A stretch of DNA of 64,000 bases, from the NCBI GenBank assembly GCA_027493775.1, contig JAOSKE010000002.1, forward strand, positions 407,435-471,434, given 5' to 3'. Source of the stretch: Kiritimatiellia bacterium (lineage in GTDB: Bacteria > Verrucomicrobiota > Kiritimatiellia > CAIVKH01). Below, piece after piece: positions 2,806 to 50,844 of the stretch. Each line of letters begins with the position of its first letter. Position 1 is the first letter of the stretch. A program made the position numbers and the translations under genes. Below the pieces are notes generated by a model. It did no database searches, was not told the origin of the DNA, and worked only from the letters and a program-made list of their open reading frames with translations.

Positions 2806-3993
2806 CTATTGTTTGCTATAGGCCAGCACAAACCCGGCATAAAACGCGCACGCGCGGGTCAAATGCTCAATCTCGACACACTCATTCGGGGCGTGCGCCA
2901 TGTGTTCATGCCCGGGCCCGAACCCAATGGTCGGAATGTTGTGCATCCCCGCGCTGGCGACGCCGTTTGTGCTGAAGACCCAGTGGCCGACAATCGGCTT
3001 CTCATCGAACACCGCCTGATACGCCTCGCGCGCCTTCTTCACTTCGAGCGTGGATTCCGGCATCTCCCAGGTTGGGAAATACTTCTTCGTCGGATAGGTC
3101 AACCCCGTGTAGCTCGGCGTTGCATAATCAAGCACGCGCACAACCGCCTTCGCCTTCTTCACCGAAGGCAGCGCCTTGATCTGATTCACGGCAATCTTTT
3201 CCGTTTCGCCCACGGTCAAGCGGCGATCCAAATGGATGGCGCATCCGTCCGCGACCGCGCACAAACTCGGCGAGCGCGAACGGATGTGACTGATCGTCAC
3301 GGTGCCCTTGCCCAACGGCTTTTTCGGCTTGAGGCGCGCGTTCAACTTTTCGATATCCGCAATAATCGGCGCCATCTTATAGATCGCGTTCACGCCGCGT
3401 TCGGGCGCGGAGCCGTGGCAGGAAATTCCCGTCGTCTCCACTTCGATTTCCATGCGGCCACGGTGCCCGCGATAAATGCGCAGACTCGTCGGCTCGGTGA
3501 TGACAACCACGTTGGGACGTAGTTTCTCTTCCTTCACCAAATACTGCCAGCACAGCCCGTCACAGTCCTCCTCCTGCACCGTCGCCGTGATAAAGAGCGA
3601 TACATTCTTCGGGAAGCCCATCTTCTTCAAAAGCGCGCCCGCGTAAATTGCCGATGCCACACCGCCCTTCATGTCGCTTGTGCCGCGTCCATACAAACAT
3701 CCATTTTTTACAATCGGCTTGAACGGGTCGGTTTTCCATGCCTTGAGGTCGCCCACATCCACGGTGTCAATGTGCCCGTCAATAGCGATTTGAACCGGCC
3801 CCTTCCCGATTCGCCCGATGACGTTCCCCATCTTGTCCACGCGCACGGAATCGTAGCCGAGCTTCTTCATTTCATCTGCGATGCGGCGCGCAACGCGCCC
3901 CTCCTCGCTACTCAGCGATTTGATTGAGATGATGTCCTTCATGAATTTCAGAAGGCGCGATTCCATTGCCCGACTTGCTGCCAGTATGCTCAT
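2806..3993 (-). CDS. ygeY: YgeY-family M20 peptidase/hydrolase (selenium-metabolism-linked hydrolase family)
   Basis: 395 aa with M20 metallopeptidase motifs (GHIDTV, GRGTSDMKGG, ITEPT). Lies 5 nt downstream of the TrpB-like gene on the same strand. Confidence 0.8.
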   Translation of the reverse strand: MSILAASRAMESRLLKFMKDIISIKSLSSEEGRVARRIADEMKKLGYDSVRVDKMGNVIGRIGKGPVQIAIDGHIDTVDVGDLKAWKTDPFKPIVKNGCLYGRGTSDMKGGVASAIYAGALLKKMGFPKNVSLFITATVQEEDCDGLCWQYLVKEEKLRPNVVVITEPTSLRIYRGHRGRMEIEVETTGISCHGSAPERGVNAIYKMAPIIADIEKLNARLKPKKPLGKGTVTISHIRSRSPSLCAVADGCAIHLDRRLTVGETEKIAVNQIKALPSVKKAKAVVRVLDYATPSYTGLTYPTKKYFPTWEMPESTLEVKKAREAYQAVFDEKPIVGHWVFSTNGVASAGMHNIPTIGFGPGHEHMAHAPNECVEIEHLTRACAFYAGFVLAYSKQ

Positions 3994-3998
3994 GACCT

Positions 3999-5487
3999 TT
4001 ACTCCATGTTTTTCAGTACGCCTGTTGCCTCATTGAATTCCGTGATCCGCCGATCCCATTCGGCGATCCGTTCCTCCGCAAAAATGTCCCGCCAGAACGA
4101 CTCGTCCCACAGCCTCCGCAAGTCTTCCACGTCCCGGCCCTGCTGTTCGACCCAGGTGAAGTATTTGAACTGATGCAACGCCTTCCGTTCCTGATAATTC
4201 AGCTCGCGGAAAAGAGATGTTGTGTGTCCATCGAGATAGGTCGCCGCCACGGAGATCGCATCGCGAGCGCTGAACCGGCCACGCGCCTCCGTCATTTCTT
4301 CGAGGCGCGATCCGTAAAGCTCCATCGAATCCGTAAGCGGAATAAACAGAACGTCATTGCGGTCCATCTCGTAATATTCGGCGGTCTTTACCGCTGCGAC
4401 CAAATTGCAGATTCCGGAAATGCCTGCGAGATCGAGCGATTCAATCGTTGCTTCTGGCACTCCGCTTGCCGCGAGCAAATTTTTTCCCTCTATCTCGTTA
4501 AACAACCGCATGAGCTGCATGACCGCCTCGTCATCCACCGCGGCCACCGCATCGGTATTGCGGACGTTGTGAACCCACGGAACATGCTTGTCCCCGATTC
4601 CCTCGATTCGGTGTGCGCCGAATCCAAACTGGTACAGCGTCGGACACTGTAACGCCTCCGCCGCAACGACACGCAGCTGTGGATATTTTGTCCGCAAATA
4701 ATCGCCCGCCGCAATGGTGCCCGCCGATCCCGTTGCGCTGATAAATCCCGCAAGCCGCGAAGAAGGCCCACGGATCTGATTTTCGTACACCTCGCTGATC
4801 AGCGAACCGGTGACGTGATAATGCCACATCGCGTTTCCAAACTCTTCTGAACTGATTGAAAATCACGATGTCATCGCCGCGCGTGCGGCGTAGCTCCCAG
4901 CACTTGTCGTAAATCTCTTTTACGTTCGACTCCGTGCCCGGCGTCGCAATGATCTCGTCCGTCCCGATCTCGCGCAACCAGTTGAATCGCTCCTGACTCA
5001 TTCCCTCCGGCAGAATCGCAATGGCGGGACAGCCCAGCAGCGCACAGTCGTACGCGCCGCCCCGACAATAGTTGCCGGTGGATGGCCACACGGCCTTTTG
5101 CCGGGTCGGATCGAACTGCCCCGAGACCAGACGCGGCACGAGACATCCATAGGCTGCGCCCACTTTATGGGCGCCCGTCGGAAACCACTTTCCGACAATG
5201 CCCACGATTCGAGCGTCCACCCCCGTCAGCGCCGAGGGAAACTCAATCCAGTTCCCTTCTCCGAATCCGCCTCCGCGCGGCTTCGGCTCGTTCTTCCATG
5301 TGATGCGAAACAAATTCAGCGGATTCACATCCCACAATCCGATGGAGGAAAGTTTTGTCTTAATCGCGGCGGGGATTTGGGAAGGATCCATTTGCTGCGC
5401 GATGGTCGGCAAAATTACATGCCGCTCTCGCGCACGACCAATCGCCCGTTGCAATACGCTCTCTTCCGCCATCAATCCCGTAGTCAT
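3999..5487 (-). CDS. TrpB-like PLP-dependent enzyme (tryptophan synthase beta superfamily); frameshifted near 4848
   Basis: N-terminal ORF 4531-5487 has the PLP-lysine motif FPTGAHKVG and ends ...DIVIFNQF. C-terminal ORF 3999-4829 continues in another frame (EEFGNAMWHYHVTGSL...). A 1-nt indel at about 4848 restores one ~495-aa protein. Confidence 0.75.
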
Positions 5488-5653
5488 CGAACACCCCGCT
5501 GGTTCTTTCCGCTAAAGCGTCGCGCCGACTTCGTCATCAAACAACGGAATAACAGCCTCCGGCGCCCTGATTAGCCCATCGGTAAAACCCTGATCCCTCA
5601 AAAGAGGTTCTTCCCCGATTGCGATTCACAAGGAATTACGCAACCATTCCAAC

Positions 5654-5887
5654 ATGGAAATCAGGTTGGAATATGTCGCAATGCTGAAGACCAACGCGCC
5701 GCCGAGCGGGAGCGTAATGACCGTTCAAGAGGGCATCACGATTGCAGCGCTCTTGGAACAAATCGGAATCCCTGAAAAGCAACGCGGCGTGATCACGCCG
5801 TTTGTGAACACAGCAAAAGTCAGTCAGAACCACGCGCTCCAAAACGACGACCGTGTCTTCCTCGCAATGCCGATCGGTGGCGGGTAA
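5654..5887 (+). CDS. MoaD/ThiS-family ubiquitin-like sulfur-carrier protein
   Basis: 77-aa ORF ending ...AMPIGGG-stop (C-terminal Gly-Gly typical of MoaD/ThiS). Convergent with the xanthine dehydrogenase-like gene, divergent from the TrpB-like/ygeY operon. Confidence 0.7.
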   Translation: MEIRLEYVAMLKTNAPPSGSVMTVQEGITIAALLEQIGIPEKQRGVITPFVNTAKVSQNHALQNDDRVFLAMPIGGG

Positions 5888-6005: not shown

Positions 6006-8330
6006 GTTATCCGCCCTCGCGTTCTTGAATCGCTTTCCAAATGGCATTCGGCATGAACGGAGAGCTGCGCATACGAACGCCCACGGCATTGTAGATGGCG
6101 TTGGCGATGCAGGGGAGCGGGCCGTTGATGCAAATTTCGGAAACGCTCTTTGCGCCGTACGGGCCACTCTTTTTCGTAGCTGGGGACCAGAATGGTCTTC
6201 AGCGCCGGCTTGTCCCGCATGGACATGATCTTGTAGTGCGCGAAGGATGGATTGAGCATCCGCCCGCGTGAACTGAAGCGATACTGCTCCGTCAACGCAT
6301 AGCTGATTCCGTTCAACACGCCGCCCTCGGTCTGGCCCTCGGCCAGCTTCGGGTTCACTGCCGTGCCGCAATCCACCGCTGCGACATAGCGCAGGACGCG
6401 CACCCTGCCGGTCAACGTGTCCACCTCCACTTCGCAGAAATGTGCGGAGAAAGGCGGCGGCGACTTGTGCGTGATATGCGAGGAAATCGCGCCAATTTGG
6501 AACTGGTCCGACCCATAGAGCGAGCGCAGCGCGATTTCCGGAGAACGTGACGGATTTTCCATCCGGCCCAAACGCGCAGTTGTCGCGCAGATCGATTTCC
6601 TTGGGTTTGCATTCCATCATCGCGGCGCCAACACCAGCGATTTGTTTGGCAACTTTTTCGGCGACGTTCTTCACCGCCATTCCGCTGAGATACGTCGTGC
6701 TGGAGGCATACGCGCCAACATCGAACGGGGTTGTGTCCGTGTCCGACGAATAGACGATGAGCTTGTCCACATCGCAGCCGACTGTTTCTGCAGCGATTTG
6801 CGCAAGAATGGTATCGCTCCCCGTCCCGATGTCCGTCGCGCCGACCAGCAAATTGAATGACCCGTCGTCATTCATCTTCATCGTTGCCGCGCCCATATCA
6901 ATTTCGGGGATGCTGGATCCCTGCATCAGCGACGCCATTCCGATGCCGCGACGGAAGCGCCCTTTTTTGTCCTGCCAGCGCCCGCGCTTTTTCCAACCGA
7001 TCTCGCGTGCGCCGAGCTTCATGCACTTCTCCATTTCGCAACTGCCGATGGACTGTTCGACGCCCGCCTTTCCTTCTCCCAGCGCCCGGAAAACCGGCGA
7101 TGTTTCACCCGAGCGAATCGTGTTCATCCGGCGGAACTCCAGCGGGTCCATGCCGAGCATCTCCGCCAGCTCATCCATCATGCAATCAATGCCGAACGTG
7201 GATTGCGTCGCGCCATACCCGCGATACGCTCCGCCGACCGGCAGGTTGGTGTATGCGGATTCGCCGACAAAGTGGATGGTTTTGCTGCGGTACAGCGGAA
7301 GAATTTTGCTGCCGCTATTGCACACCACCGTCAGCGCGTGCGCACCGTACGCCCCCGAGTTTGTGCAGCAATCCAACGCAAGCGCACTGATTGATCCATC
7401 CTTTTTCACGCCGGCACGAATACGCATTTTCTCGGGATGTCGCGTCCGGCTGGAAACAAACTCTTCCTCGCGCGTGTATTTCCAATGCACGGCCCGACCG
7501 GTACGCAACGCGAACATGGCAACCACCGGCTCCAGCAGCACCTCCTGCTTTCCTCCGAAGCCGCCTCCGATGCGGGGTTTCACAACGCGAATCCTGCGCA
7601 CCGGGATCTGAAGCACCTGCGCAACGATGCGGCGGACATGGAACGGCACCTGTGTGCTCGTTGTGACAATCACGCGACCATCTACATCAAGATGCGCGGT
7701 CACGATATGCGGTTCAATCGGACAGTGATGCGCATAGTCCGTGTAAAACTCCCGATCAAGCATCGTGTCCGCCGCCTTCAATTCGGCCTCGACATCCCCC
7801 ACGTCCATTGCGACCCGCGCGGCGAGATTCCGCTGCGGTTCGTATGGAACCGGAATCGGGACATGCGCCTCCGGCTCGTCGTGGATCACAGGCGCACCGG
7901 GCTTGAGCGCGTCATCAATCGTGAATACGGCGGGCAGTTCCTCGTACACCACCTTGATCGCCTTCACTGCTGCGGCAGCCTGTTCCGGCGTATCCGCGGC
8001 AACTGCGGCGACGCGATCACCAACGAAGCGCACTTTATTGTCAAACAGGAAGGAATCGTATGGCGAGGGCTCGGGAAAACCCTGTCCCGCAGTCGTGTGA
8101 ACCACACGCGGAACATTGCCGTGATGCAGGATGCAATGCACCCCCGGCATCTTCTCCGCCTCGCTTACATCAATGGATACAATCCGCGCGTGCGCATGGG
8201 GACTCCACAGCGCCTTCACATACAAGGAGTCGGCGGGCTTCAAATCCGCGACAAACATCGGCTTGCCGGTGGCAAGCGAGAGGGAGTCAATTTTCCGGAC
8301 GGACTTTGCGACAACATTAAATTTCTTCAT
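6006..8330 (-). CDS. xanthine dehydrogenase family molybdopterin-binding subunit (XdhD-like); two frameshifts (~6540 and ~6166)
   Basis: N-terminal 600 aa read in the frame of ORF 5973-8330 up to ...GPDGKSVTFS. The middle (FCEVEVDTLTGRVRVL...GQTEGG...ILVPSYEKE) is in the frame of ORF 5891-6571. The true C-terminus GPYGAKSVSEICINGPLPCIANAIYNAVGVRMRSSPF...EREGG-stop at 6006 is in the third frame. Confidence 0.8.
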
Positions 8331-8788
8331 GACCGCGCCTCCGAAGCAAGTTTGCGTAACGCCGATTCAATCTTCTGATAACCCGTACACCGACACAACT
8401 GGCCGTCCAGCGCGACAGCCAGCTCCTCTTCGGTGGGCGATGGATTTTTGTCAAACAGCGCCTTCGCCGCGAGAATGACTCCAGGCATGCAATACCCGCA
8501 CTGAATCGCGCCCTCCTCCACGAGCGCGTCCTGAATGGGATGCGGATGATCCAACGAACCGATCGCCTCCACCGTTTCCACCGTCCGCCCGTTCACCTGC
8601 CCGGCGTAGGTAAGACAGGAATTAATGAGGCGGCCGTCCACATTCACCGCACACGACCCGCACGCGCCTTCGTTGCACCCAATCTTTACGCTGGCGCAAC
8701 CAAGTTCCCGCAACAGGTCCGCGAGTTTGGTGTTGGCCTCAACTTCCGCCGTTCGCAATTTTCCATTGAGCGTGAATTGAATATTCAT
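8327..8788 (-). CDS. (2Fe-2S)-binding subunit of xanthine dehydrogenase-family enzyme
   Basis: Cys motifs CNEGACGSCAV and CGYCMPG...CRCTGY. Start at ATG 8788 (MNIQFTL) preceded by GGAGGAAGG; the stop overlaps the Mo-subunit start. Confidence 0.85.
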   Translation of the reverse strand: MNIQFTLNGKLRTAEVEANTKLADLLRELGCASVKIGCNEGACGSCAVNVDGRLINSCLTYAGQVNGRTVETVEAIGSLDHPHPIQDALVEEGAIQCGYCMPGVILAAKALFDKNPSPTEEELAVALDGQLCRCTGYQKIESALRKLASEARS

Positions 8789-8790
8789 AA

Positions 8791-9631
8791 TTACCTTCCT
8801 CCCGCCATCCCGCACGCCTCTAAAATCGCATCGGGCAAATGTGCGCGCGCCAGTTGTTTGATGTACTCACTGCTGTATCCGCGATCCCCTTTCCAGGAAA
8901 CACCGGCCAGATGCGCTTCCACGGCGGCGGCGATGTCCGCCTCTGCGCATTTTTTTCCCGACAAGCTCCGCCTCCAATGCCGAGAGTCGGCAAGGCAGCG
9001 GGACGCCCGCTCCAACCGCGACCCGTGCATCCCGAATCGTCCGGCCTTCGCGGCGAATCCATGCCGCAATGGTGAGGTGGCTGAAGTCCATATTAACAAG
9101 GCTCTCCTTGTGATAGCCAAAGCCGGACCCCTCTCCGATTTCCGGAACGGATATTTCAGTGAGCAGGTCGCCCGGCTGAAATAGACGACTCGGTTGACCA
9201 TCGAAAAAGACCGACGCCAGATGCGAGGTTTTTGCCTCGCCCGAAATGGTCATCGTTGCGTTCAGCGCAAGCAGCGCGACAGGAAAATCATTCCACGGAA
9301 AAACGCGGCTGATGTTTCCGCCGATGGTCGTCATATTTCGTAGCGGCTGACTCACAAAGCGAAGCGCGACGCGATCCAGCACCCAGCCCGGAGCGTGAAA
9401 CGCCTGCAAATCCGCAATTCGCGTATTTGCGCCGACCACAAAATGTCCATTTTTGCACTCAACACCTTCGAATCCGATATCGGCAATGTCCACACCGATT
9501 TTTTCGTCATCATTCTTAACAAATGAATGCGACGACGCGCCCGCAAGCGGCATCGCCGTCGGGCCAAGCTCCTTCAACAGTCGGCGCGCATCCGCCAGTG
9601 ATTTCGCGCGGTGATAGGCAGTCAGTTTCAT
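8791..9631 (-). CDS. FAD-binding subunit of xanthine dehydrogenase-family enzyme (YgfM-like); frameshifted in A7/T7 run 8950-8956
   Basis: ORF 8867-9631 (MKLTAYHRAKS...LPCRLSALEAELVGKK) plus the C-terminus in another frame (AEADIAAAVEAHLAGVSWKGDRGYSSEYIKQLA, part of ORF 8791-9201). The junction is at the T7 run. Confidence 0.75.
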
Positions 9632-11004
9632 ATTTGACCTCCAGCTTTCTTCAACATCATATCCGTCAACTCGTTCGCCCTATGAAAGAGACGCTGCTCA
9701 TCCGTGCCGATCAACTCGCCGCCGGCCACGCGAATGACGCCATTAACGATCGTATAATCCGCGCGCGCACCCGCGCCGCAGAACAGGATGGCGGACGCGG
9801 GATCCGTCATCGCGCCCGCGTATTCAATCCGATCCAGTCGAAACAAGGCGATATCCGCAAGCGCCCCCGGCGCAATACGTCCAATCTCCGGCCATCCGAA
9901 CACCTCTGCGCCCCCGCGCGTCGCCATGTGCAGCACACGACTCGACGGCATCGCGTCAACCGCCGTTCCAACGCGATGCGCCAGCAGCGCCATTTGCATT
10001 TCGCGGCTGAAACTGGAACTATCATTGCTGGCGGAGCCGTCCACTCCGAGCGCAACGCGAACACCCGCCTCCATCATGCGCGGAATCGGCGCAATTCCCG
10101 ACCCCAGCCGCAGATTGGACGACGGACAGTGCGCGATTCCGGTTTTCGTCGCCGCGAGTTTCTGTATTTCACCGTCATTAAAATAGATGCCGTGCGCAAA
10201 CCAGACATCGGGACCCAGCCACTCGTTCTCCTCCATGTATTCGATCGGTCGCTGTCCGAACATCTCGCGGCAGTAATTCTCCTCATCCACGGTCTCGCAC
10301 AAATGCGTGTGACAGATGACGCGATGTGCACGGGCAAAGCGGATTGTCTCCCGTAACAACTCCGTCGTAACCGAAAACGGCGAACACGGCGCGAGGGCCA
10401 GTCGACACATCGAATCCGGCTCGGGGTTGTGGTATTTTGCGATCAACCGGTCACAATCCGCGATGATTTCCTCGTGATGCTGCACCACGTCATCGGGCGG
10501 AAGTCCGCCATGTGATTTGCCCCGGCTCATGCTGCCGCGTGTGGGATGGAAGCGAATGCCCATCGCGCGCGCGGTTTCAATTTCCACATCCACCAATTCC
10601 CGCGTCACACCACGCGGGAAAACGTAAAAGTGATCCGAGGTGGTTGTGCAGCCGGACAACAACAGCTCGCCGATCCCGACACGCGCGCTGATATCCACCG
10701 CCTCCGGCGTAAGCCAGCGCCAGATTTCGTAAAGATTTGTCAGCCAGTCGAACAGTTTCGCGTTTTGAACGGCCGGAATGTTGCGCGTCAGTGTCTGATA
10801 AAGATGGTGGTGCGTATTGATGAAACCGGGGTAGAGCACATGGTTGCTCGCATCAATCACCGACGCGCCGGGTGGCGCGTCGAGCGACGGCTTAATCGCG
10901 GCGATTCGATTGCCCTCCACAAGCACATCCACGTCATGCACAGGCTGCTCGCCATCCACCATGCTGACGAGGGTCTGCACCCGTTTTAGAAGGATGGCAC
11001 TCAA
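9628..11004 (-). CDS. amidohydrolase-family deaminase (8-oxoguanine/guanine deaminase-like)
   Basis: Metal-binding motif GFINTHHHLYQT and typical amidohydrolase C-terminal half. Start is ambiguous: TTG at 11004 (after GGGGGAG) or GTG at 11019; the ORF track ATG at 11112 overlaps the upstream gene. Confidence 0.75.
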   Translation of the reverse strand: MSAILLKRVQTLVSMVDGEQPVHDVDVLVEGNRIAAIKPSLDAPPGASVIDASNHVLYPGFINTHHHLYQTLTRNIPAVQNAKLFDWLTNLYEIWRWLTPEAVDISARVGIGELLLSGCTTTSDHFYVFPRGVTRELVDVEIETARAMGIRFHPTRGSMSRGKSHGGLPPDDVVQHHEEIIADCDRLIAKYHNPEPDSMCRLALAPCSPFSVTTELLRETIRFARAHRVICHTHLCETVDEENYCREMFGQRPIEYMEENEWLGPDVWFAHGIYFNDGEIQKLAATKTGIAHCPSSNLRLGSGIAPIPRMMEAGVRVALGVDGSASNDSSSFSREMQMALLAHRVGTAVDAMPSSRVLHMATRGGAEVFGWPEIGRIAPGALADIALFRLDRIEYAGAMTDPASAILFCGAGARADYTIVNGVIRVAGGELIGTDEQRLFHRANELTDMMLKKAGGQI

Positions 11005-12316
11005 TGGATTCTCCCCCACAACGCACGCGCGCGCTCGTTTGCCTTTCTTCGTATTCCGGCTTCGTCGAGATGCGAAATGACGCCGTTTTCCAGCAACACG
11101 CGACCACGGCAAATCGTTGTCGTCACCGGCGCGGCGACTAGGCCGAACAAGAGGTGACCGTAAAATGTGGAGGAGTTGAAGGGGGTGAACGGGCGATAAT
11201 CAAAGATTGCGATGTCCGCCAGACACCCCGGCGCAAGACGTCCGCGCGGCTCCGGGAAAATACGGTCGCAAATCGCGCGGTTATTTTCCAACAACAGCCG
11301 ACACGCCTCAACAAATGCCACGCGCGGGTCGCGACGGATTGCGCGTTGCGCGAGATACGCCGCGCGCGCCTGTGCGATCAATTGGTTGGACATGCCATCC
11401 GTTCCTAGACCAAGCAGGATCCCATCGCGCAGAATTTCGAGCAACGGCGTCATCCTAAGTCCGTTGTTCATATTCGACTCGGGATTCGTCGCCATCATGC
11501 TGTCCGATTCGGCGAGCATCTTCCGGCCGCGCTCGTCCAGATGAATTCCGTGCGCGAAGATGGATTTCGGCCCGACAATGCCCGCGCGCTGGAAGCGATC
11601 AATCGGGAGCGCGCCAAATTCGCGCAGCGACGCTTCTCCATCGCACTCCGCCTCATCAATATGCACATGAAAGCCCGTGTCCAGCGCCTGGCCTTCCGCC
11701 GCACAGCGCTCCAGCGTGTCGGGGCTGAGTGTCATGGATGCGTGCAGGCCGAACAGCGGTTGTATCTGAGGGTTCTTCGCCGTCCGGCATTTCTTAATGA
11801 ACCGGATATTCTCCGCGACCCCTCCCCCTTCTTGTTGCGGTCTGACACTTCGTAGCAAAGGCAGCCATTCAATCCGGCCTCACGGAACGCGCGCTCGACT
11901 ATGTCAAGGCTTCCATCCGCGCAGGCGGGCGAGGCATGATGATCAATAATCGTTGTGCATCCGGCATGAATCGCCTCCACGCAGGGAAGAATGGACGAGT
12001 AATAGACATCCTCCGCGTCCAACGCGGCGTCGAGTTTCCACCAGAGCCGTTCGAGTATTTCCTGAAAGTTTTTCGCCGGCTCGCCCGGCGGCGAGAAGCC
12101 GCGCGCCAGGGTTGAATACAGGTGATGATGCGCATTAATCAGGCCGGGCATGACAATGCGGCCTTCCGCATCAATCGTGCGATCCACTCTTTCCGTCGCC
12201 ACACGACCGACGGCGAGAATTTTCGTGTCTTCCACGAGAATGGAGCCGTTTTCAATGATGGCCCCCGCGTCATCGAGCGTCACCAATGTTCCGTTTTGTA
12301 TTAATATGCGGCTCAT
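11001..12316 (-). CDS. ssnA: SsnA-like amidohydrolase; frameshifted in C-run 11819-11828
   Basis: N-terminal ORF 11732-12316 (MSRILIQNGTLVTLDD...GLINAHHHLYSTLARG) and C-terminal ORF 11001-11858 are in different frames; the junction ...EVSDRNKKGEG/VAENIRFIKKC lies in a C4/C5 run. Confidence 0.75.
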
Positions 12317-12317
12317 T

Positions 12318-15300
12318 TTATGAATTCTCCATCAGGGGTATAAACGGAACCGATCCGCGCAGACCATTTAGCAACGCCATCATCTCCACCACCGGGCGCA
12401 GCGAAACGCGCTCGCAATCCGGCGCATTGGGCTTGGCGGTGATGGAAAGCAACTCCCAGCCCACGGACCAAACGGCATCCAGTTCAGGGCTCGAATAATC
12501 AATCCGGCCATTCAGCGACAGGGTGTGCGTTCGACCCGCGATACGCGAGTGAATGGCCGCGCCATCAGCCAATCGCTCCAAGAGAAACGCATTGTTCGAC
12601 TCGCGCTCCCATTCATCGCGCCGCGAGTAGATGCGCGGCTTGTCTTTGTACGGTTTCCCAGCGGAAGGGCAAAACGTGACGCAGTTTCCGCACTCGTTGC
12701 ACAGATCGGCAAACACCGCAACCTGGTAGCGCTGCGTGATTTTGATCGTTTCTCCGTCGAGCGCGAACCAGCGGCTATCCTTAATCCGACCCAACGGCAG
12801 TGTCTTGCAGATCGGCGCGTGCTCGTAGGTGAACAATGCAAGGTTGGGGCATACGCCGACGCAGTAGCTGCACAACAGGTCGCAATCGAGACAGCGCGAC
12901 GCCTCCTCCTTTGCGATCCGTTGACTCAACGTGTTGACAACCTCGTCGAAATCGCGGCGATCTTTCGGCGCCCGCTCCGGCGCCTTCACGGCAAATTTCC
13001 GGGTCACTCTGCGACGCTGAAATTCCGCGCGATTCACAAACAACGCGGACTCCTTTTGCCCGTCCGCAGCGCGCCCCTCAAACTTCGCGCGAATCGCGCG
13101 CGCGATTCTCTTGCCGTCGCCCAACGCCTTCACAATCGTCGCCGGCCCGCTGCCGACCGCGTCGCCGCCCGCATACACGCCCGGTGCGCTGGTTTCCAAG
13201 GTCACTGAATCAACCTGCACGTAGCCGTTCTTGTTCAGCGCGACCCCCGCCTTTTGCAGCCACTCGAAATCACCGGCCTGACTGATTGCGACAATCAGCG
13301 TGTCCATCCCGAACGTTTCCGTTTCATCGCCTTTGGGCGATGGACGACGACGCCCGCTTGCATCCGGCTCGCCCAGCTCCATAACGCGACAAACCAAGCC
13401 GGTGAGATGGCCGTTTTCAGTGAGAATTTTTGCGGCGCACGCAATTCACGAATCGGAATGCCCTCCTCCAATACGCCCCGCAATTCATCGCGCTGTGCGG
13501 GCATTTCTTTGAGGGTGCGGCGATAAATAATGTTCACGCTCTCCGCGCCAAGCCGCCATGCGGCGCGTGCGCAGTCCATCGCGACATCGCCGCCGCCAAT
13601 GACCCCGACGCGGCGTCCGATTTTGGGACGACGCCCTTCGCGCGACTCGCGGAGAAATGAAAGCGAATCCCAAACACCCGGCGCATCCTCATCTTCCAGA
13701 CCAAGCCGCCCCGCGCGCTGCGCGCCGATGGCGACAAGGACTGCCGCGTATCCTTCGCGCTGCAAATCCGACAACTGGAAATCAACACCAGCTCGCTGCT
13801 TGTGCCGGACTTCGACGCCGCGTTGCTGCAAGAACGCCAGATCGCGCTGCAACGCGTCGTCGGATGAGCGATAGCCGGGAATTGAGGAGGCAACCATTCC
13901 CCCCTTGCGATCACTCGCATCGAAGATCGTCACGGGATAACCGGCGCGCGAGAGAAAATCCGCCGCGCCCAAGCCGCATGGCCCCGCCCCAACAATTGCG
14001 ATCCGCTCTCTCTTCTTCGGCTCGACAGCCGTTTGACTCTGCGCGTAGTCAACGATGAATCGCTTGATCTCGCGTATCGCGAGCGGCTCGTCCAAGTGCG
14101 AGCGAACACAGCGCATTTGGCAGGGATGGTGACACGCGCGGCCCAAAACAGACGGCATGGTGTTGTCGCGGCACACAATCGCGACGGCCTCATCCAAGCG
14201 GCTTCCTGCGACCGCGCGCATATACTCCGGCACACCCTGCTCAATCGGACACACCTCAACGCAGGGCGCTTTGATGCAGTCGAAAAGACCAAGCGGCCGG
14301 AGCGACTTTGTATCGGTTCGATCAAACGTCTCCTCACGATACAATCTGCTATCCAACACCTCCGCCGCGTAGCGCCTCAAATTGGCCTGCGCCGCCACAA
14401 TTCGATGATCGTTCCCTGCGGTCTTGCGGACAAATTCATCCGGCGAGTGCGCCTGCGCGGACTTCATCGCCGCCGCGAGATGCTGAACGTACTGCGCGAG
14501 TCGGCCATAGCCGCCGGAGCGGAGCAAATCCGAACAGACGGTGACGGTCCTCATGCCGCACTGCATCAACGACGCGATATTGAAGGCGTCCGCGCCGCCC
14601 GCAAATGAGACATCCACTTCGCCGCCGAACGCCTCTTGCAGGCGGAGCGCGGCGTGAACCGTCACAGCATGCAGCGGGCGGCCGGACATGTACATCTGCT
14701 TTTCTTTGGCGTCAAACGTCCGGCGGTGATTGATGACTTCCAGCGTATTCGACAGCTTCACTCCGAAGGACAAGCCCTGCGCCGCAGCGACGGCGCGGAG
14801 TTCACGGATCAGTTCCACGGCGTTATCAAAAGTGATGTCGTGCTCGAACGCCGCGTCCGGAACCGTGATGTCGTCGAAGCCGAGCTGATCATTCAAAATT
14901 GCGCGCAGCCGTTCCGGGCCAAGTAGCGTGGGGTTCAACTTGACGTAGGTGTGAAGCCGCTTCTTTTCGAGCAAATAGCGGCTGATTGCGCCGATTTCGC
15001 CAGGCGGACAACCGTGCATGGTCGAGAGGGTGACATTGTTGGAAACTCGACTGGGAACAGGCACGTCACCGATGTCGGGAAATATCCTGGAGAGTGTTTC
15101 TTTTCCCTTTTGGACCAAATCAGAGGCGTTCTCCATCGCGTCGAAGAAGCCCTGCACGTTCGGCTTGAGGATTCCCTCCATGTTGTAGCCGACGCTCATG
15201 TTGAAGACGGCGCCCGGCTGGTCGCCTTCCAACCCCAATACGCGATGCAGATAATGCGTCAGCAGCCAAGCGTTCACGTATTCCTGAATAGACTCGCGCA

Positions 15301-15649
15301 CGCGCAACTCTTGCGACCACTCCACATTGTAACCCGCGTCCTCCATATCAATGCACGGTTTACTGACCTCCAGCTCGTCCAGCGTTTGGATCGTCTTCAG
15401 TTCGATGAACCGTGCGCCGCACAGCCAGGCCGCAACGATGTTCTGCGCCATTTGCGTATGCGGCCCCGCAGCGACACCGATGGGCGTGAACAGCGTCTGT
15501 CCGAAAACGGAGGTGCGGAACGGGTCGGAAGCGCGCGGCTCGTAAAACAACTCACGATGGATTCCAAAAATGGATTGATTCGCCGCCATCTCATCGCGCA
15601 CCCATCCCGCAAGACGGCCCAACGATAGAGGAAACATTCGATCACTCAT
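12318..15649 (-). CDS. ygfK: YgfK-like putative selenate reductase subunit (FAD/NAD-binding plus Fe-S domains); frameshifted at T5 run 13427-13431
   Basis: ORF 13295-15715 carries Cys clusters and GXGXXG motifs (IAIVGAGPCGLGAA, VGVIGGGDVAMD). The C-terminal 360 aa (ORF 12318-13397, LVCRVMELGEPDASGRRRP...) is in another frame. Start taken at MSDRMFPL (15649), immediately after the sdaA stop. Confidence 0.75.
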
Positions 15650-16917
15650 GAAACACTCCCTTCCGTCGCCGCGACGACCGGCGCGGCTTGCGTTGACGCG
15701 GCTCGTTTGCGCCACACTGCGGCAAGGCCGCCGCGCGCGGTTTCCCGATAGGCGCTTTGCAGATCAAGCCCGGTGCGGTACATCACCTCGACCACATCAT
15801 CGAAACTCACGCGGTGCCGCCCATCCGTCAGCAGCGAAAACGATGCGCACTCAAACGCGCGAAGGCAGGCGGCCATGTTCCGCTCGATGCAGGGAATTTG
15901 CACGTAGCCTTCCACCGGGTCACAGGTCAATCCGAGGTGGTGCTCCATTCCGATTTCAGCGGCGTATTCAATTTGATGCGGCGAGCCGCCAAGCAGTTGT
16001 GAACACGCCGCAGCGGCCATGGAGCAGGCGGAACCGATTTCGCCCTGGCACCCCACTTCAGCGCCGGACACGGAGGCGTTTGCGCGGATGACTGACCCGA
16101 ACAAACCCGCAGTCGCCAATGCGCCCAGGATTTCCTGAAGAGGCGTCTTTTTAACCGTCGCAAAATAGTACAGCAACCCCGCGACCACTCCGGCGGGGCC
16201 GCAGGTCGGCGCGGTGACAATCGTTCCGGCGCTTGCGTTTTCTTCCGCGACCGCCAGGGCAAAGGAGGACAGAAACGCGAGATCGCGCCGCGTGCCCTGC
16301 AGGGATTGCGCCCGCTCCCAGGTGGTTCCTGCCTGGCGCGAGAGGTTCAGCGAACCGGGCAGAAGCTTGTCCGTGCTCTTCAACCCGCGCTCAACACTGT
16401 CGCGCATAGCGGCCCAAATCGGGATCAGCCTGTTCCATACATCCGGCTCATGCAGTTCGACGAATTGCCGGAACGAGCTGTTGTTTTTTTCGCACCAGTC
16501 GAGCGCGTCCGCGAGATTGGAAATGGGATAGGTGACGACCTCTCCCGTATTGACCGGCCCGCTGTCGTCGCGCAACGAACCGCCACCAATGCTGTACACG
16601 CGCCATTCATCTGAAATAAATCCCAGCGCATTGATCGCTTGCCAGATCATCGTGTTCGGGTGAACCGGAGTTGGCGACACGGCGTCCCACACGATTTCGC
16701 AAGCGATCGGATATAGCGCGGCGATAATCGTTCTATCCGTCAGATGTCCGCGTCCCGTCTCCGCAAGACTGCCCTGCAGGGTCACGCGCACGCAGGCGGG
16801 AGGGGTTGTCTGGCGGTCGAGAAGTATGCGCGCGGCACGCTGCGGCCCAATGCTGTGCGAGCTGGATGGACCCGCGCCAACTTTGAACGTCTCAAAAATG
16901 GATTCCACGACCGGCAT
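15646..16917 (-). CDS. sdaA: L-serine dehydratase, iron-sulfur-dependent, single chain
   Basis: Motifs FKVGAGPSSSHSIGP, YSIGGG, ANASVSGAEVGCQGEIGSACSMAAA and GMEHHLGLTCDPV...VQIPCIERN match the L-serine dehydratase family. First gene of the seven-gene minus-strand operon. Confidence 0.8.
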   Translation of the reverse strand: MPVVESIFETFKVGAGPSSSHSIGPQRAARILLDRQTTPPACVRVTLQGSLAETGRGHLTDRTIIAALYPIACEIVWDAVSPTPVHPNTMIWQAINALGFISDEWRVYSIGGGSLRDDSGPVNTGEVVTYPISNLADALDWCEKNNSSFRQFVELHEPDVWNRLIPIWAAMRDSVERGLKSTDKLLPGSLNLSRQAGTTWERAQSLQGTRRDLAFLSSFALAVAEENASAGTIVTAPTCGPAGVVAGLLYYFATVKKTPLQEILGALATAGLFGSVIRANASVSGAEVGCQGEIGSACSMAAAACSQLLGGSPHQIEYAAEIGMEHHLGLTCDPVEGYVQIPCIERNMAACLRAFECASFSLLTDGRHRVSFDDVVEVMYRTGLDLQSAYRETARGGLAAVWRKRAASTQAAPVVAATEGSVS

Positions 16918-16996
16918 GGCGACTTTCCGATTTTGCTTCCACCAATCAGTCTAGGTTTTCGTTGCGCGATGGACAGCGTTATGTCGCCCAGCAACG

Positions 16997-17014
16997 CCTG
17001 ATGCTCGCATCAGG
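16997..17014. promoter_or_regulatory. perfect 18-bp palindrome in the divergent sdaA/ygeW promoter region
   Basis: CCTGATGC-TC-GCATCAGG with 8-bp arms, in the 178-bp intergenic region between the two divergent island operons. Confidence 0.4.
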
Positions 17015-17095
17015 GGAACCCTGATTGAAGCAAAACGGACAACGCTGAATACTTCGCGCAGTGGTTTGGAACGTGTTGTGTGACCGTCCGAAAAA

Positions 17096-18319
17096 ATGCG
17101 TGACTACTGGTCGCGCGGAAAGGGACAAGTGAATACGCTGAATTCAATTATCGCCGACTTGCGCAAACGCCCCGCATCTCTTCACGGAAAAGATTTTCTC
17201 CTAACGTGGGATCGCTCGCTCGATGAATTAAAGTTGATCCTCGGCCTTGCCGAAGCCCTGCGATTGATGCGCAAGCAGGGAATCTCAACGCGAGTGTTTG
17301 ACTCGGGTCTGGCGGTCTCGAATTTTCGCGACAACTCAACACGCACGCGCTTCTCGTTTGCCTCCGCCTCAAATCTTCTCGGGCTTTCCGTTCAGGACCT
17401 CGACGAAGGAAAATCACAAATCGCGCACGGCGAAACCGTCCGCGAAACGGCGACCATGATTTCCTTCCTCACGGAAACCATCGGCATTCGCGACGACATG
17501 TTTCTCGGCGCGGGTCACACCTACATGCTGGAGGTGGCGGAGGCGCTCGATGAAAGTTTCCGCGAGGGTGTATTGCCGCAACGTCCGGGCATTGTGAATT
17601 TGCAGTGCGATGTGGATCATCCGACGCAGTCCATGGCGGATTTGCTCTGGCTCGAAAAGCAATTTGGATCGCTCGACAACCTGCGCGGAAAAAAGATCGC
17701 GATGACGTGGGCGTATTCGCCGAGCTATGGAAAGCCGCTGTCGGTCCCGCAGGGCATCATCGGTTTGATGAGCCGCTTCGGGATGAATGTGGCGCTCGCG
17801 CATCCAAAGGGATACGACCTGATTCCTGAAGTCGTCGAGCGATCGGCGCGGCAGGCGAAAGAGTCTGGCGGCTCGTTCACCCACACGCATTCAATGGAGG
17901 AGGCGTTCGAGGGCGCGGACATTGTCTATCCGAAATCCTGGGCGTCTTATTCCGTCATGGAAAAGCGCACCGGGCTGTTGCGGAACAACGATCACGCCGG
18001 GCTGAAGGAATTGGAAAAGGCGTGCCTAGCGGAAAACGCTGCGCATACGAATTGGGAATGCTCGCCGGACAAGATGAAGCGCACAAAAGATGGCGACGCT
18101 CTTTATATGCACTGCCTGCCGGCGGACATCACGGGCGTTTCCTGCAAACAGGGCGAAGTGGCGGCCGACGTGTTCGAGAAATATCGCCTGCGCACGTATC
18201 ACGAAGCGGGCGGAAAGCCGTTCATCATCGCAGCCATGATTCTGGCCAACCGCTTTGCCGACCCCGTCGGCATGCTGGAGGAATTGCTCAAAAAGAACAA
18301 ATCGCGCGTCGGCGCGTAA
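17096..18319 (+). CDS. ygeW: YgeW-type knotted carbamoyltransferase
   Basis: 407 aa with the carbamoyltransferase signature NSTRTR and HPTQ; length and overall pattern fit YgeW rather than OTC or ATCase. Confidence 0.8.
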   Translation: MRDYWSRGKGQVNTLNSIIADLRKRPASLHGKDFLLTWDRSLDELKLILGLAEALRLMRKQGISTRVFDSGLAVSNFRDNSTRTRFSFASASNLLGLSVQDLDEGKSQIAHGETVRETATMISFLTETIGIRDDMFLGAGHTYMLEVAEALDESFREGVLPQRPGIVNLQCDVDHPTQSMADLLWLEKQFGSLDNLRGKKIAMTWAYSPSYGKPLSVPQGIIGLMSRFGMNVALAHPKGYDLIPEVVERSARQAKESGGSFTHTHSMEEAFEGADIVYPKSWASYSVMEKRTGLLRNNDHAGLKELEKACLAENAAHTNWECSPDKMKRTKDGDALYMHCLPADITGVSCKQGEVAADVFEKYRLRTYHEAGGKPFIIAAMILANRFADPVGMLEELLKKNKSRVGA

Positions 18320-18326
18320 GGAGAGT

Positions 18327-19286
18327 ATGACAGCGTCCGCAAAGCGGAAGAAGCTCGCGATTATCGCGATCGGCGGCAACTCGCTGATCAGCGACAGCCG
18401 CAGCATGTCGGTTCCGGATCAATACCGGGCCGCAGGCGAGACAAGCCGCCATATTTCCGCGCTTGTTAAGCTGGGCTACCGGGTGGTGGTCACCCACGGC
18501 AACGGGCCGCAGGTCGGCTTCATCCTTTTGCGCTCCGAGCTTGCCAAGGACAAACTGCACTCGGTCCCGCTCGAAAGTTGCGTCGCGGACACACAGGGCG
18601 CGATCGGTTATCAAATTCAGCAAACGCTCAAGAACGAGTTGCACCGACTGGGAATCGTACAGCCCGTCGGAACGCTGGTTACCCAGTGCGTCGTCAGCGC
18701 AAATGACCCGGCCTTCAAAAATCCGACCAAACCCATCGGCCCCTTCTATACGGAAGAGGAAGCGCGTGCCCATGAGGTGAAGGACGGCTGGACGGTGCGC
18801 GAAGACGCCGGGCGCGGGTGGCGTCGTGTGGTGCCCTCCCCCGTCCCGCGCGAGATCGTGGAGGAACCCATTATCAAGGTGTTGCTGGAACGGGATGTCA
18901 TTGTCGTCGCCGTCGGCGGCGGCGGCATCCCGGTGACACGCACAAGGAGCGGACGCCTCAAGGGTTGCGCGGCGGTGATTGACAAGGATGCCGCATCAAG
19001 CCTGCTTGCGCAAAATTTGAAGGCGGATGTTTTGATCATCTCAACCGCGGTCAATCACGTCTATGTGAACTTCGGAAAACCGGATCAGCGGCCGATTTAT
19101 TACATGTCTCTCAAGGAAGCGGAAGGTCACGTCAAAGATGGACAATTCTCCGCGGGAAGCATGTTGCCCAAAATCGAGGCGGCGATCCGCTATCTAAAAG
19201 CCGGAGGAAAGAAGGTCATCATCACACAACCGCACCTCATCGAGAGTTCGGTTGTTGGAAAGGGAGGAACACACATCACGCCATGA
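18327..19286 (+). CDS. arcC: carbamate kinase
   Basis: MTASAKRKKLAIIAIGGN...VVTHGNGPQVG...; ATG 18327 preceded by AAGGAGAG. The stop overlaps the next start (ATGA). Confidence 0.85.
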   Translation: MTASAKRKKLAIIAIGGNSLISDSRSMSVPDQYRAAGETSRHISALVKLGYRVVVTHGNGPQVGFILLRSELAKDKLHSVPLESCVADTQGAIGYQIQQTLKNELHRLGIVQPVGTLVTQCVVSANDPAFKNPTKPIGPFYTEEEARAHEVKDGWTVREDAGRGWRRVVPSPVPREIVEEPIIKVLLERDVIVVAVGGGGIPVTRTRSGRLKGCAAVIDKDAASSLLAQNLKADVLIISTAVNHVYVNFGKPDQRPIYYMSLKEAEGHVKDGQFSAGSMLPKIEAAIRYLKAGGKKVIITQPHLIESSVVGKGGTHITP

Positions 19287-20536
19287 ATACGACATCCACA
19301 TCTCACGTCAGCGGTTTCCGCTGCCTTCGTTGCGGCGCCGAGCAGCCGAAATCATTCGACGGAATGCTCTGCCCCCTCTGTGAATACAATCTCGACGTTG
19401 AATACAACTACGCCGCGATTGATCCGCACAACTGGATGAATGAGCGCGACGATTTGTTCCGCTACTCCGCGCTGCTGCCCGTCAGCAACTTGGGCCTGAC
19501 GCCGGTTCAGCGCGTCGGACAAACTCCGCTCTATCACGCCGCACGCGCAGGAAAAGCACGCGGCCTGAGTCAGCTTTATGTCAAAGACGACGGCATGAAC
19601 CCCAGCGCATCGTTCAAAGACCGCGCGGGCGCGGTGGCGCTGGTCGTCGCGCGCGAGCGCAACGCGAGCGTGATTGCCGCATCCACCACGGGCAATGCGG
19701 GCAGCTCCATGGCGGCCTTGACCGCAGGCGTAGGATTTCCGTGCGTCATTTTCGTCCCCGCGACCGCGCCCGCCGCCAAGATCGCGCAGCTTCTCGTCTT
19801 CGGTGCAAAAGTAATCGCGGTGCAGGGCACCTACGACCAGGCGTACGACCTTTGCGAAACGGCGTGCGAGGAGATGGGCTGGTTCAATCGCAATACGGGC
19901 TTCAACCCCTTCACACGCGAGGGAAAAAAAACCTGCTCGTTTGAAATCTGGGAGCAGTTGGGCGGACAGGCGCCGGATCACCTGTTGGTAGGATCGGGCG
20001 ATGGAAACATCATCAGCGGAATTTGGAAGGGCTTCCGCGACCTGCTCGCGCTCGGCCTGATCAAGAAAATGCCCGCGCTCTACAGTTGCCAATCCGAAAA
20101 AAGCGCGGCCATTGCCACCGCCGTTCGCGCCGTTCAAGACCGCTCCGCAGTGGACTGGAAGGCGCTGAAACTGCCGACGGTGAAATCGGAAACCCTTGCG
20201 GACTCCATTTCGGTGGACTACCCAAGCGACGGCATTGCAGCCATGCGCGCGATGTTTGAAACCGGCGGCGACGCAATTACGGTTTCCGAAGATGAAATTC
20301 TACGCGCCATCCCCGACCTTGCCCAATCCACCGGCGTCTTCGCCGAACCCGCCGCCACCGCCTGCTGGGCGGCATTGGACAAACTCTTAACAATGAAGAC
20401 CATCGCCCACGACGAAAAGGTCGTTTGCGTCATCACGGGCAACGGCCTGAAAGATGTCGCCAGCGCCAGAAAAACCGTGGGCCAGCCGATCACCGTGGAG
20501 CCGACGATAGAGGCCGTGATGGCGGCGATTACCTAG
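19283..20536 (+). CDS. threonine synthase-family PLP-dependent enzyme with N-terminal zinc ribbon
   Basis: N-terminal CxxC...CxxC (CLRCGAEQ...CPLCEY) and the PLP-lysine motif SFKDRAG typical of threonine synthase-like enzymes. Confidence 0.75.
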   Translation: MNTTSTSHVSGFRCLRCGAEQPKSFDGMLCPLCEYNLDVEYNYAAIDPHNWMNERDDLFRYSALLPVSNLGLTPVQRVGQTPLYHAARAGKARGLSQLYVKDDGMNPSASFKDRAGAVALVVARERNASVIAASTTGNAGSSMAALTAGVGFPCVIFVPATAPAAKIAQLLVFGAKVIAVQGTYDQAYDLCETACEEMGWFNRNTGFNPFTREGKKTCSFEIWEQLGGQAPDHLLVGSGDGNIISGIWKGFRDLLALGLIKKMPALYSCQSEKSAAIATAVRAVQDRSAVDWKALKLPTVKSETLADSISVDYPSDGIAAMRAMFETGGDAITVSEDEILRAIPDLAQSTGVFAEPAATACWAALDKLLTMKTIAHDEKVVCVITGNGLKDVASARKTVGQPITVEPTIEAVMAAIT

Positions 20537-50344: not shown

Positions 50345-50844
50345 TGTTCTTCGCTCTCCGTCTTCCGTTTCAATTGTTTCGTATCTTCCAAAATCGTCAG
50401 CAGCACATCCGCGATCGCGCGGTCAATTCGGTCGCGCGTGAAGCGATACACATCCAGCGACATCCCGATCGGGTCTGGAATATCCTCCATCCGCCGATCC
50501 GTGCCGAATTCCGTCAGCAGGCGCACCCGATCCCGCGCCTCGGGGAACATCGAAAGCACCGCCTGTGCATGACCGCGCGTCATCACAATAATCCAATCGG
50601 ACTCTTCCACCAACTTTTGCGTCAGTGGCTGGCTGCGGTGCTGGCGGACATCAATCTGCCACTCGCGCAGTGCAACCAACGCCTCCGCGCTCGCGGGCAC
50701 GCCCGTCAGTGCGGCGACGCCGGCGGATTTTACGCGCCAACCCGGACGGTTTCCGAGCCGATGCCGCAAAATCGCCTCCGCCATCGGGCTGCGACAAATG
50801 TTGCCCGTGCAGACAAACAAAACTTGATGTGTAGCTTCAGCCAT
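50341..50844 (-). CDS. low-molecular-weight protein tyrosine phosphatase (or arsenate reductase-like)
   Basis: P-loop motif [17 protein letters not shown]. Start at ATG 50844 preceded by GAGAGAGGGAAA; the ORF track start 50916 runs through the palindromic operator. Confidence 0.8.

Follow-up and report, generated by a model that had tools for sequence, protein, structure and literature searches.

The terminal chalcogenide on the molybdenum cofactor (Moco) of xanthine dehydrogenase (Xdh)-family enzymes is installed by XdhC with NifS4 in Rhodobacter capsulatus and by YqeB, YqeC and SelD in the case of gut-bacterial DOPDH, the donors being a cysteine-desulfurase persulfide or selenophosphate (PMC13653126; 10.1101/2025.04.24.650524). 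Small sulfur carriers are known from other systems, among them MoaD of molybdopterin synthase, ThiS with its activating enzyme (E1) ThiF, CysO of the CysO-CysM-Mec+ set of Mycobacterium tuberculosis, and the MoaD paralogues that are strictly linked to the Mo/W enzyme AOR, often together with MoeB (PMC1779556). A reductive uric-acid (2,8-dioxopurine) pathway was described in 2025 (10.1101/2025.05.19.654654, 10.1101/2025.04.24.650524), and its first enzyme is an unusual molybdenum (Mo) hydroxylase. We have analysed a 64-kb stretch of contig JAOSKE010000002.1 from a metagenome-assembled genome of a Kiritimatiellia bacterium (hereafter the window), in which a reductive uric-acid gene cluster contains a small open reading frame (ORF) at 5654-5887, between the genes for the Xdh Mo subunit (XdhMo) and for a 495-aa pyridoxal-phosphate (PLP) enzyme (PALP495). 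By fold, Gly-Gly end and Pfam match its product is a member of the MoaD/ThiS superfamily; within this known carrier type it represents a previously undescribed, cluster-specific subfamily. The tie of the carrier to the uric-acid genes is best explained if it is a dedicated MoaD/ThiS sulfur carrier of the cluster.

The original prediction, made from the sequence alone, had described a 77-aa ORF ending in PIGGG between the Mo-subunit gene and a PLP-enzyme gene, and both its coordinates and its description agree with the translation (MEIRLEYVAMLKTNAPPSGSVMTVQEGITIAALLEQIGIPEKQRGVITPFVNTAKVSQNHALQNDDRVFLAMPIGGG, followed by the stop codon) and the gene map. The carrier gene lies on the plus strand between two minus-strand genes, divergent from the PLP-enzyme gene across a 166-bp spacer and convergent with the XdhMo gene across ~120 bp. 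A database entry, MCZ7592213.1 (‘MoaD/ThiS family protein [Kiritimatiellae bacterium]’), is identical to the protein. Between the window and locus L005 (82% amino-acid identity), codon positions 1, 2 and 3 differ at 11, 7 and 28 sites, with a dS of 0.86 and a dN of 0.11 (dN/dS 0.13); the gene is under purifying selection, and the third-position substitutions of the plus frame rule out a chance ORF or an antisense artefact. Conservation in related genomes, on which the original prediction had staked the gene, was found in the form of a tight orthologue family whose members are exactly 77 aa long, align without gaps at 35-82% identity and all end in GG directly before the stop. Some gene callers start the protein at Met10 (68 aa, P0001); since residues 1-9 are conserved and form strand β1 in the structural model, we rejected this start and take 5654 as the true one. 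An antisense ORF of 68 aa (5636-5842, minus strand) overlaps the carrier and is open in most orthologues; substitutions support the plus frame only, and the antisense ORF is probably a GC-rich artefact. Altogether, 5654-5887 is confirmed as a genuine gene.

AlphaFold2, run with the family alignment, returned a confident β-grasp model (pLDDT 89.3, pTM 0.79) with the strand and helix order of this fold and a flexible C-terminal tail. In a Foldseek search against the PDB, SAMP1 came first, followed by mycobacterial, Escherichia coli, Helicobacter pylori and human MoaD, then ThiS and TtuB, at TM-scores of 0.61-0.73 and with a probability of 1.0 to SAMP1, MoaD, ThiS and TtuB; six of the ten top matches are MoaD subunits of molybdopterin synthase, beside SAMP1 and ThiS. 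The structure prediction proposed earlier as a check on the β-grasp Gly-Gly carrier thus came out in its favour. At the sequence level, the match of the window protein to Pfam PF02597 (ThiS/MoaD family) is marginal (E=6.6e-5; 23.8 bits, with the gathering score at 22.5), and most family members carry a precomputed match to the same model. Word-based searches gave five close relatives and profile searches 69; a HMMER scan of 1.84 billion representatives collected 119 clusters (50% identity) at E<=1e-10, a number that rises to 1022 at E<=1e-3. Length is nearly invariant, almost every member having exactly 77 aa, and an alignment of 65 sequences has no internal gaps, with D66, P73, G76 and G77 invariant and M1, E6, A9, L11, G15, G19, L34, L37, H43, F50, N52, L62 and L70 nearly so.

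NCBIfam yielded no match at E<=0.01 for the window protein. Across the 65 members it gave weak matches to moaD_arch (16/65; best member E=1.4e-6), ThiS (16/65) and moaD (5/65), and none of them reached the curated cutoffs for MoaD proper (TIGR01682/TIGR01687) or ThiS proper (TIGR01683); the carrier of L104, for example, scores 21.4 bits against a MoaD cutoff of 49.5 and 19.7 bits against a ThiS cutoff of 37.45. The best PDB profile match is a Pyrococcus furiosus MoaD-like protein (E=0.006), ahead of E. coli ThiS (0.058) and E. coli MoaD (1.1). The carrier is therefore a member of a distinct 77-aa subfamily that is covered by no curated MoaD or ThiS model and is not demonstrable as either protein proper. 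Public names for the family are inconsistent and include ‘ThiS’, ‘molybdopterin converting factor small subunit’, ‘MoaD/ThiS family’ and ‘hypothetical’.

The genomic contexts of the family deserve special attention. A search of 185,579 species genomes with PALP495 as bait gave at least 587 relatives, of which the best 80 (loci L006-L085; 62-79% identical, from Kiritimatiellia, other Verrucomicrobiota, Woeseiaceae, Planctomycetota, Myxococcota and others) were analysed; adding contigs retrieved by way of the carrier gave ~30 carrier contexts. Nearly all of them belong to a uric-acid cluster, where the carrier sits between PALP495 and the xdh genes, and four gene orders can be told apart. Arrangement 1, that of the window clade, is XdhMo (minus), carrier (plus), PALP495 and YgeY (both minus). 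Arrangement 2, from another clade of Verrucomicrobiota, places a 170-aa nitroreductase-family gene immediately before the carrier (2-12 nt spacer, 124 nt in L091), with a response regulator and a ~125-aa unknown gene divergent upstream and with XdhMo and PALP495 within a few kb. A 971-aa protein downstream of the carrier in this arrangement was considered as a hidden E1 and rejected, as it shows only weak similarity to glycosidases and carbohydrate-binding modules. Arrangement 3a, found in eight loci of Ignavibacteriaceae, is a run on one strand of YgeY, YgeW-like, ThrC-like, MocA-like, PALP495, XdhC, carrier and ThiF-type E1 genes that converges on XdhMo. Arrangement 3b comprises ThrC-like, MocA-like, PALP495 and carrier genes, the last on the same strand after a 55-59 nt spacer, and then a convergent XdhMo. 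In most loci the carrier is convergent with XdhMo at a distance of 4-120 nt. One Thermodesulfobacteriota locus (L041, 3979-5682) has MocA-like and XdhC genes, and no carrier, between the xdh genes and PALP495, which shows that Moco accessory genes fill this position in further lineages as well.

Arrangement 3a provides the carrier with plausible partners in cis. The spacers are 2 nt between xdhC and the carrier and 0 nt between the carrier and the E1 gene. The XdhC protein matches PF13478 (2.4e-27) and PF02625, and the E1 exceeds the curated cutoffs for ThiF (family 2), with 262.9 bits against 159 for NF006395 and 233.9 against 152.2 for TIGR02354. The earlier remark that the carrier has no visible E1 partner consequently holds for the lineage of the window and fails for the family, since a ThiF-type E1 is encoded in cis in Ignavibacteriaceae: the missing E1 is a property of the window’s lineage, not of the carrier family.

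These contexts bear on the simplest assignment, an ordinary MoaD that would act as the small subunit of molybdopterin synthase, deliver the dithiolene sulfurs with MoaE and merely be parked beside the organism’s main molybdoenzyme. The lead of MoaD chains among the structural matches, the P. furiosus profile match, the weak moaD_arch and moaD matches and the label ‘molybdopterin converting factor small subunit’ used by some sources agree with it, any Xdh-bearing organism requires a MoaD, and two contexts away from Xdh genes fit a general function. The carrier resembles MoaD (E. coli 1FM0/1JWB; human MOCS2A) as a β-grasp protein of ~80 aa with a C-terminal Gly-Gly (TM-scores 0.63-0.73) and a link to a molybdoenzyme. 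However, the curated MoaD cutoffs are out of reach for every member, ThiS being matched equally often, and none of the ~30 contexts contains MoaE, MoaA, MoaC or MoeA. MoaD typically lies beside MoaE and rarely beside its own E1 (PMC1779556), whereas the neighbours here are the XDH-specific late factors XdhC and MocA and an E1 of ThiF family 2 rather than MoeB, and the family keeps to clusters that bear one particular Xdh subtype. We therefore consider an ordinary MoaD improbable.

The Xdh subtype in question emerged from a comparison of carrier-positive and carrier-negative loci. Wherever a Mo subunit is visible at a carrier locus (20 loci, and the window as well), what we term type-A XdhMo is encoded (43-100% identical to the reference from L004). 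The 20 carrier-negative loci compared all encode type B (~30% identical), with a PALP495 that is still 64-70% identical; L093 carries type A as well as type B, and its carrier adjoins the former. The best models for type A are XdhA and the XdhD-type TIGR03313. Type B of Woeseiaceae is a fused Fe-S/Mo protein of 928 aa, nearest to TIGR03311 (selenium-dependent XDH model), and in L025 (3191-5977) the stop of the fused gene overlaps the start of PALP495 by 4 nt. The same cluster position is thus filled by a separate 773-aa XdhA/XdhD-like subunit with the carrier and by the fused 928-aa protein without it. Among the best 80 PALP495 loci the carrier was present in five and absent within ~6 kb in the other 75, which include Woeseiaceae operons where the Mo-subunit gene overlaps or abuts PALP495. 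Because PALP495 is common without the carrier and the carrier tracks type A, we favour the Mo enzyme over PALP495 as its partner.

This comparison weakens the second of the two functions offered originally, a CysO-CysM-like role, and strengthens the first, delivery to the cofactor, which also draws on the operon with XdhC and E1; the co-occurrence analysis suggested at the time showed the carrier following the XdhA/XdhD-like subtype and PALP495 widespread without it. In the CysO-like scheme, the carrier thiocarboxylate would attack an aminoacrylate that PALP495 holds on its PLP and could make from a substrate such as O-phosphoserine, O-acetylserine, serine or 2,3-diaminopropionate, and a peptidase would free the thiol amino acid, as in CysO-CysM-Mec+ of M. 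tuberculosis. The likeness is real in that a Gly-Gly carrier adjoins a cysteine-synthase-family PLP enzyme: among solved relatives, cysteine synthases (E=2e-20) and CBS come closest to PALP495. In the window clade the two genes diverge from a region that holds a conserved motif; PALP495 is always nearby, 55-59 nt upstream of the carrier in arrangement 3b and separated by XdhC alone in 3a; and independent insertions leave the carrier beside PALP495. Operons that combine ThiS/MoaD, E1, JAB and cysteine synthase are a known theme (PMC1779556), and the M20 hydrolase YgeY is almost always adjacent. On the other hand, a general dependence of PALP495 on the carrier is impossible for a 495-aa family that is conserved at 62-79% across phyla and lacks the carrier at 75 of 80 loci; some nine PALP495 loci of Kiritimatiellia and other Verrucomicrobiota without a nearby Xdh also lack it. 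No JAMM/Mec+ protease and no rhodanese-E1 of the MoeZ type was found in any carrier context examined, YgeY is assigned to the pathway as a ureido-hydrolase (10.1101/2025.05.19.654654, 10.1101/2025.04.24.650524), and the catabolic pathway requires no sulfur chemistry. A CysO-like donor is accordingly rather unlikely in our estimation; if the carrier did serve the CysK-like enzyme, the purine pathway would contain a hidden sulfur chemistry.

The nitroreductase gene of arrangement 2 and the E1 of arrangement 3a open a further set of explanations, in which the carrier would be a ubiquitin-like modifier, a regulatory adaptor or a carrier of another pathway, either as the nitroreductase’s partner or as a thiamin ThiS. 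Only 2-12 nt separate the nitroreductase gene from the carrier in L093, L094, L096, L097, L101 and L102 (BluB/TM1586-like genes; 7484-7996 in L093, 6581-7111 in L094, 9479-9985 in L096), and both this nitroreductase and the Ignavibacteriaceae E1 match Rv1355c, an E1-nitroreductase fusion family. SAMP1 is the top structural match, the cis E1 scores as ‘ThiF’, and adjacent carrier and E1 genes recall ThiS-ThiF. Unlike in the thiamin system, ThiG, ThiH, ThiO and ThiE are missing from every carrier context examined, as are JAB and E2-like genes; the members have 77 rather than ~66 aa and do not reach the ThiS cutoff, and their near-constant home is one catabolic, purine-degrading Xdh cluster. This whole group of roles appears quite improbable.

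The absence of an E1 and of a JAMM protease from the window itself, noted originally, was borne out. A Pfam scan of the large ORFs of the 64 kb, which did not cover every ORF below ~110 aa and met indel errors in the window, contained no ThiF/MoeB, JAB, MoaE, rhodanese, NifS, SelD or XdhC; a search of the window with E1/JAMM motif expressions was empty, and so was jackhmmer seeded with genuine E1, XdhC and MocA partner sequences. Near the carrier in the other stretches examined, NifS, SelD, YqeB and YqeC were likewise not seen.

We favour, with some reserve, the reading that the protein is an E1-activated thiocarboxylate carrier that serves Moco maturation of type-A Xdh, probably at a late, XdhC-linked step. 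By analogy with its superfamily, the C-terminal Gly-Gly would be adenylated by a ThiF/MoeB-type E1, which adjoins the carrier in Ignavibacteriaceae and must be encoded elsewhere in the Kiritimatiellia genome. The adenylate would then be converted to a thiocarboxylate, and its sulfur would pass into the maturation of the Moco of the adjacent XdhA/XdhD-type hydroxylase, the presumed acceptor, most plausibly by providing XdhC-bound Moco with its terminal sulfido ligand. A late step is favoured because the carrier travels with the XDH-family-specific XdhC and with MocA and never with MoaE or early Moco genes. The more specific proposal, that a thiocarboxylate or selenocarboxylate on the carrier, formed via the ThiF-type E1, itself donates the sulfido or selenido ligand to XdhC-bound Moco of XdhA/XdhD-type hydroxylases, is doubtful at present; if true, it would be a third route to the essential Mo=S(e), beside persulfide transfer by NifS4/ABA3 and the YqeB/YqeC/SelD selenium trait.

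The nearest precedent is provided by the MoaD paralogues that accompany AOR (Iyer, Burroughs and Aravind 2006, PMC1779556), which also lie strictly beside one Mo/W enzyme, sometimes with an E1 nearby, and for which a cofactor role is presumed. In contrast to them, the enzyme here is an XDH-family hydroxylase (Mo-molybdopterin cytosine dinucleotide or molybdopterin, with a terminal sulfido ligand) instead of a tungsten AOR, the companions are XdhC, MocA, a CysK-like PLP enzyme and a nitroreductase, and the carriers form a separate 77-aa sequence family. With the XdhC/NifS4 and YqeB/YqeC/SelD systems the carrier shares a position directly downstream of xdhC in one lineage, but the donor would be of another kind.

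Several points weigh against the favoured reading. The known bacterial sulfido route is NifS4 persulfide acting on XdhC-bound Moco, a protein thiocarboxylate donor is not described in the 2026 sulfido-ligand review (both PMC13653126), and gut-bacterial DOPDH needs SelD, YqeB and YqeC, a protein thiocarboxylate not being mentioned (10.1101/2025.04.24.650524). Phylogeny is a confounder of the link between carrier and Xdh subtype, the carrier-negative loci being mostly from Woeseiaceae, and the cis E1 and XdhC come from a single lineage, Ignavibacteriaceae. In the window lineage the mechanism rests on trans-acting partners, since its 64 kb are devoid of E1, XdhC, MocA, MoaE, cysteine desulfurase and rhodanese. 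The nitroreductase-family gene upstream of the carrier in arrangement 2 has no explanation in a Moco model, and two contexts (L001-3, beside lpxB, and L095) are outside any Xdh cluster. Finally, insertions separate the carrier from XdhMo in L086, L089 and L119 while it stays divergent from PALP495, an argument that is weak because the 3'-3' junction is also a neutral or least harmful site for insertion.

In environmental clusters from Kiritimatiellia, other Verrucomicrobiota and Ignavibacteriaceae, SelD, YqeB and YqeC are missing from the stretches examined, and a private carrier is present instead. Should it feed the Mo centre, it would constitute a new, compact and testable route of cofactor sulfuration in the xanthine-oxidase family, and it would have to be co-expressed when such a cluster is transplanted, for instance into urate-lowering probiotics.

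The region between the divergent carrier and PALP495 genes must hold the promoters of both. It contains no sigma-70 consensus promoter, terminator-like matches near the gene were unconvincing, and Rfam gave no match near the carrier gene even at E<=1, for a Moco or any other riboswitch. A gapped motif recurs between the corresponding genes of L004, L005, L006, L007, L086, L088 and L089 while its flanks diverge. A palindromic copy, CCTGATGCTCGCATCAGG, is situated at 16996-17021 in the divergent region between the serine-dehydratase and YgeW genes, and the window has three occurrences against 0.21 expected. The motif may be an operator at which a cluster regulator acts, or a promoter element.

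Table 1 Features of the window and insertions in related loci
Feature	Coordinates	Strand	Remarks
YgeY-family M20 hydrolase	2806-3993	-	NCBIfam NF009555, 561 bits against cutoff 321
PALP495, 495-aa fold-type-II PLP enzyme, CysK/CBS-like	3999-5487	-	Pfam PALP; split by 1-nt insertion at 4848
Intergenic region, carrier/PALP495, divergent	5488-5653		From gene coordinates
Motif CCCTGAT-N6-ATCGG-N5-CCC	5565-5590	+	Conserved in seven orthologous loci
Carrier ORF	5654-5887	+	ATG start, 77 codons plus stop, C-terminus ...AMPIGGG
Xdh Mo subunit, type A (XdhA/XdhD-like)	6007-8330	-	Pfam MoCoBD_1/2, Ald_Xan_dh_C; 1-nt insertions at 6170, 6538
Xdh 2Fe-2S subunit	8327-8815	-	Pfam Fer2_2, Fer2
Xdh FAD-binding subunit	8797-9631	-	Pfam FAD_binding_5, CO_deh_flav_C; 1-nt insertion at 8950
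Remaining cluster	9631-20536		8-oxoguanine-deaminase-like amidohydrolase, SsnA, YgfK, L-serine dehydratase (-); YgeW, carbamate kinase, ThrC-like PLP enzyme (+)
Insertion in L089	8615-12467		Y1 transposase and small ORFs
Insertion in L086	8298-9933		CarboxypepD_reg-domain protein
Insertion in L119	3834-4709		Glycosyltransferase

The surrounding island is a reductive uric-acid cluster (Table 1). Its distal part, from 9631 onwards, was assigned from NCBIfam matches, either of the window genes or of intact orthologues in L004, combined with a tblastn map: the YgeW of the window scores 679 bits, and the L004 orthologues identified SsnA, YgfK, the XdhA/XdhD-like Mo subunit and the 8-oxoguanine-deaminase-like amidohydrolase. 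An intact orthologue of the Mo subunit scores 671 bits with XdhA and 641 bits with TIGR03313. The PLP enzyme next to the carrier had been called TrpB-like; it is a PLP enzyme, though not a specifically TrpB-like one, and among named or solved proteins cysteine synthases and CBS are closest to it, with cysteine synthases as the closest PDB chains and weak NCBIfam matches to CysK, CysM, CBS and SbnA (CysK TIGR01139 at E=3e-28, below its cutoff). An OrtA/OrtB-type thiolase had been thought of for the pair of small protein and PLP enzyme; no such family was matched, and the small protein is clearly of the ThiS fold.

Several genes of the island are interrupted in the window. Relative to L117, a short-read contig of 99.85% identity, there are single-base indels at 4848, 5998, 6170, 6538 and 8950, mostly in short homopolymer runs. 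PALP495 is intact at 495 aa in L005 (8345-9832) and in L116-118. Pseudogenisation was rejected, as the frameshifts come down to these five 1-nt indels and the split genes are whole in the three further contigs of the species that the analysis covered (L116-118); the indels look like assembly errors, and the island can be taken as functional. Similar breaks occur at ~11819-11837, ~13427 and 58.9-61.9 kb and affect SsnA, YgfK and PurL.

The cluster of the window showed neither HyuA nor YgeX, and environmental clusters add a ThrC-like enzyme and, in many cases, an L-serine dehydratase; in them PALP495 almost always adjoins YgeY. This suggests that, in the PALP495-bearing environmental clusters, the published pathway ends in an uncharacterised variant form. 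Farther along the window, a single ORF at 49157-50422 (minus strand) combines an RpiB (LacAB_rpiB) domain with the N-terminal half of serine hydroxymethyltransferase, and is either a fusion or an indel artefact joining two genes.

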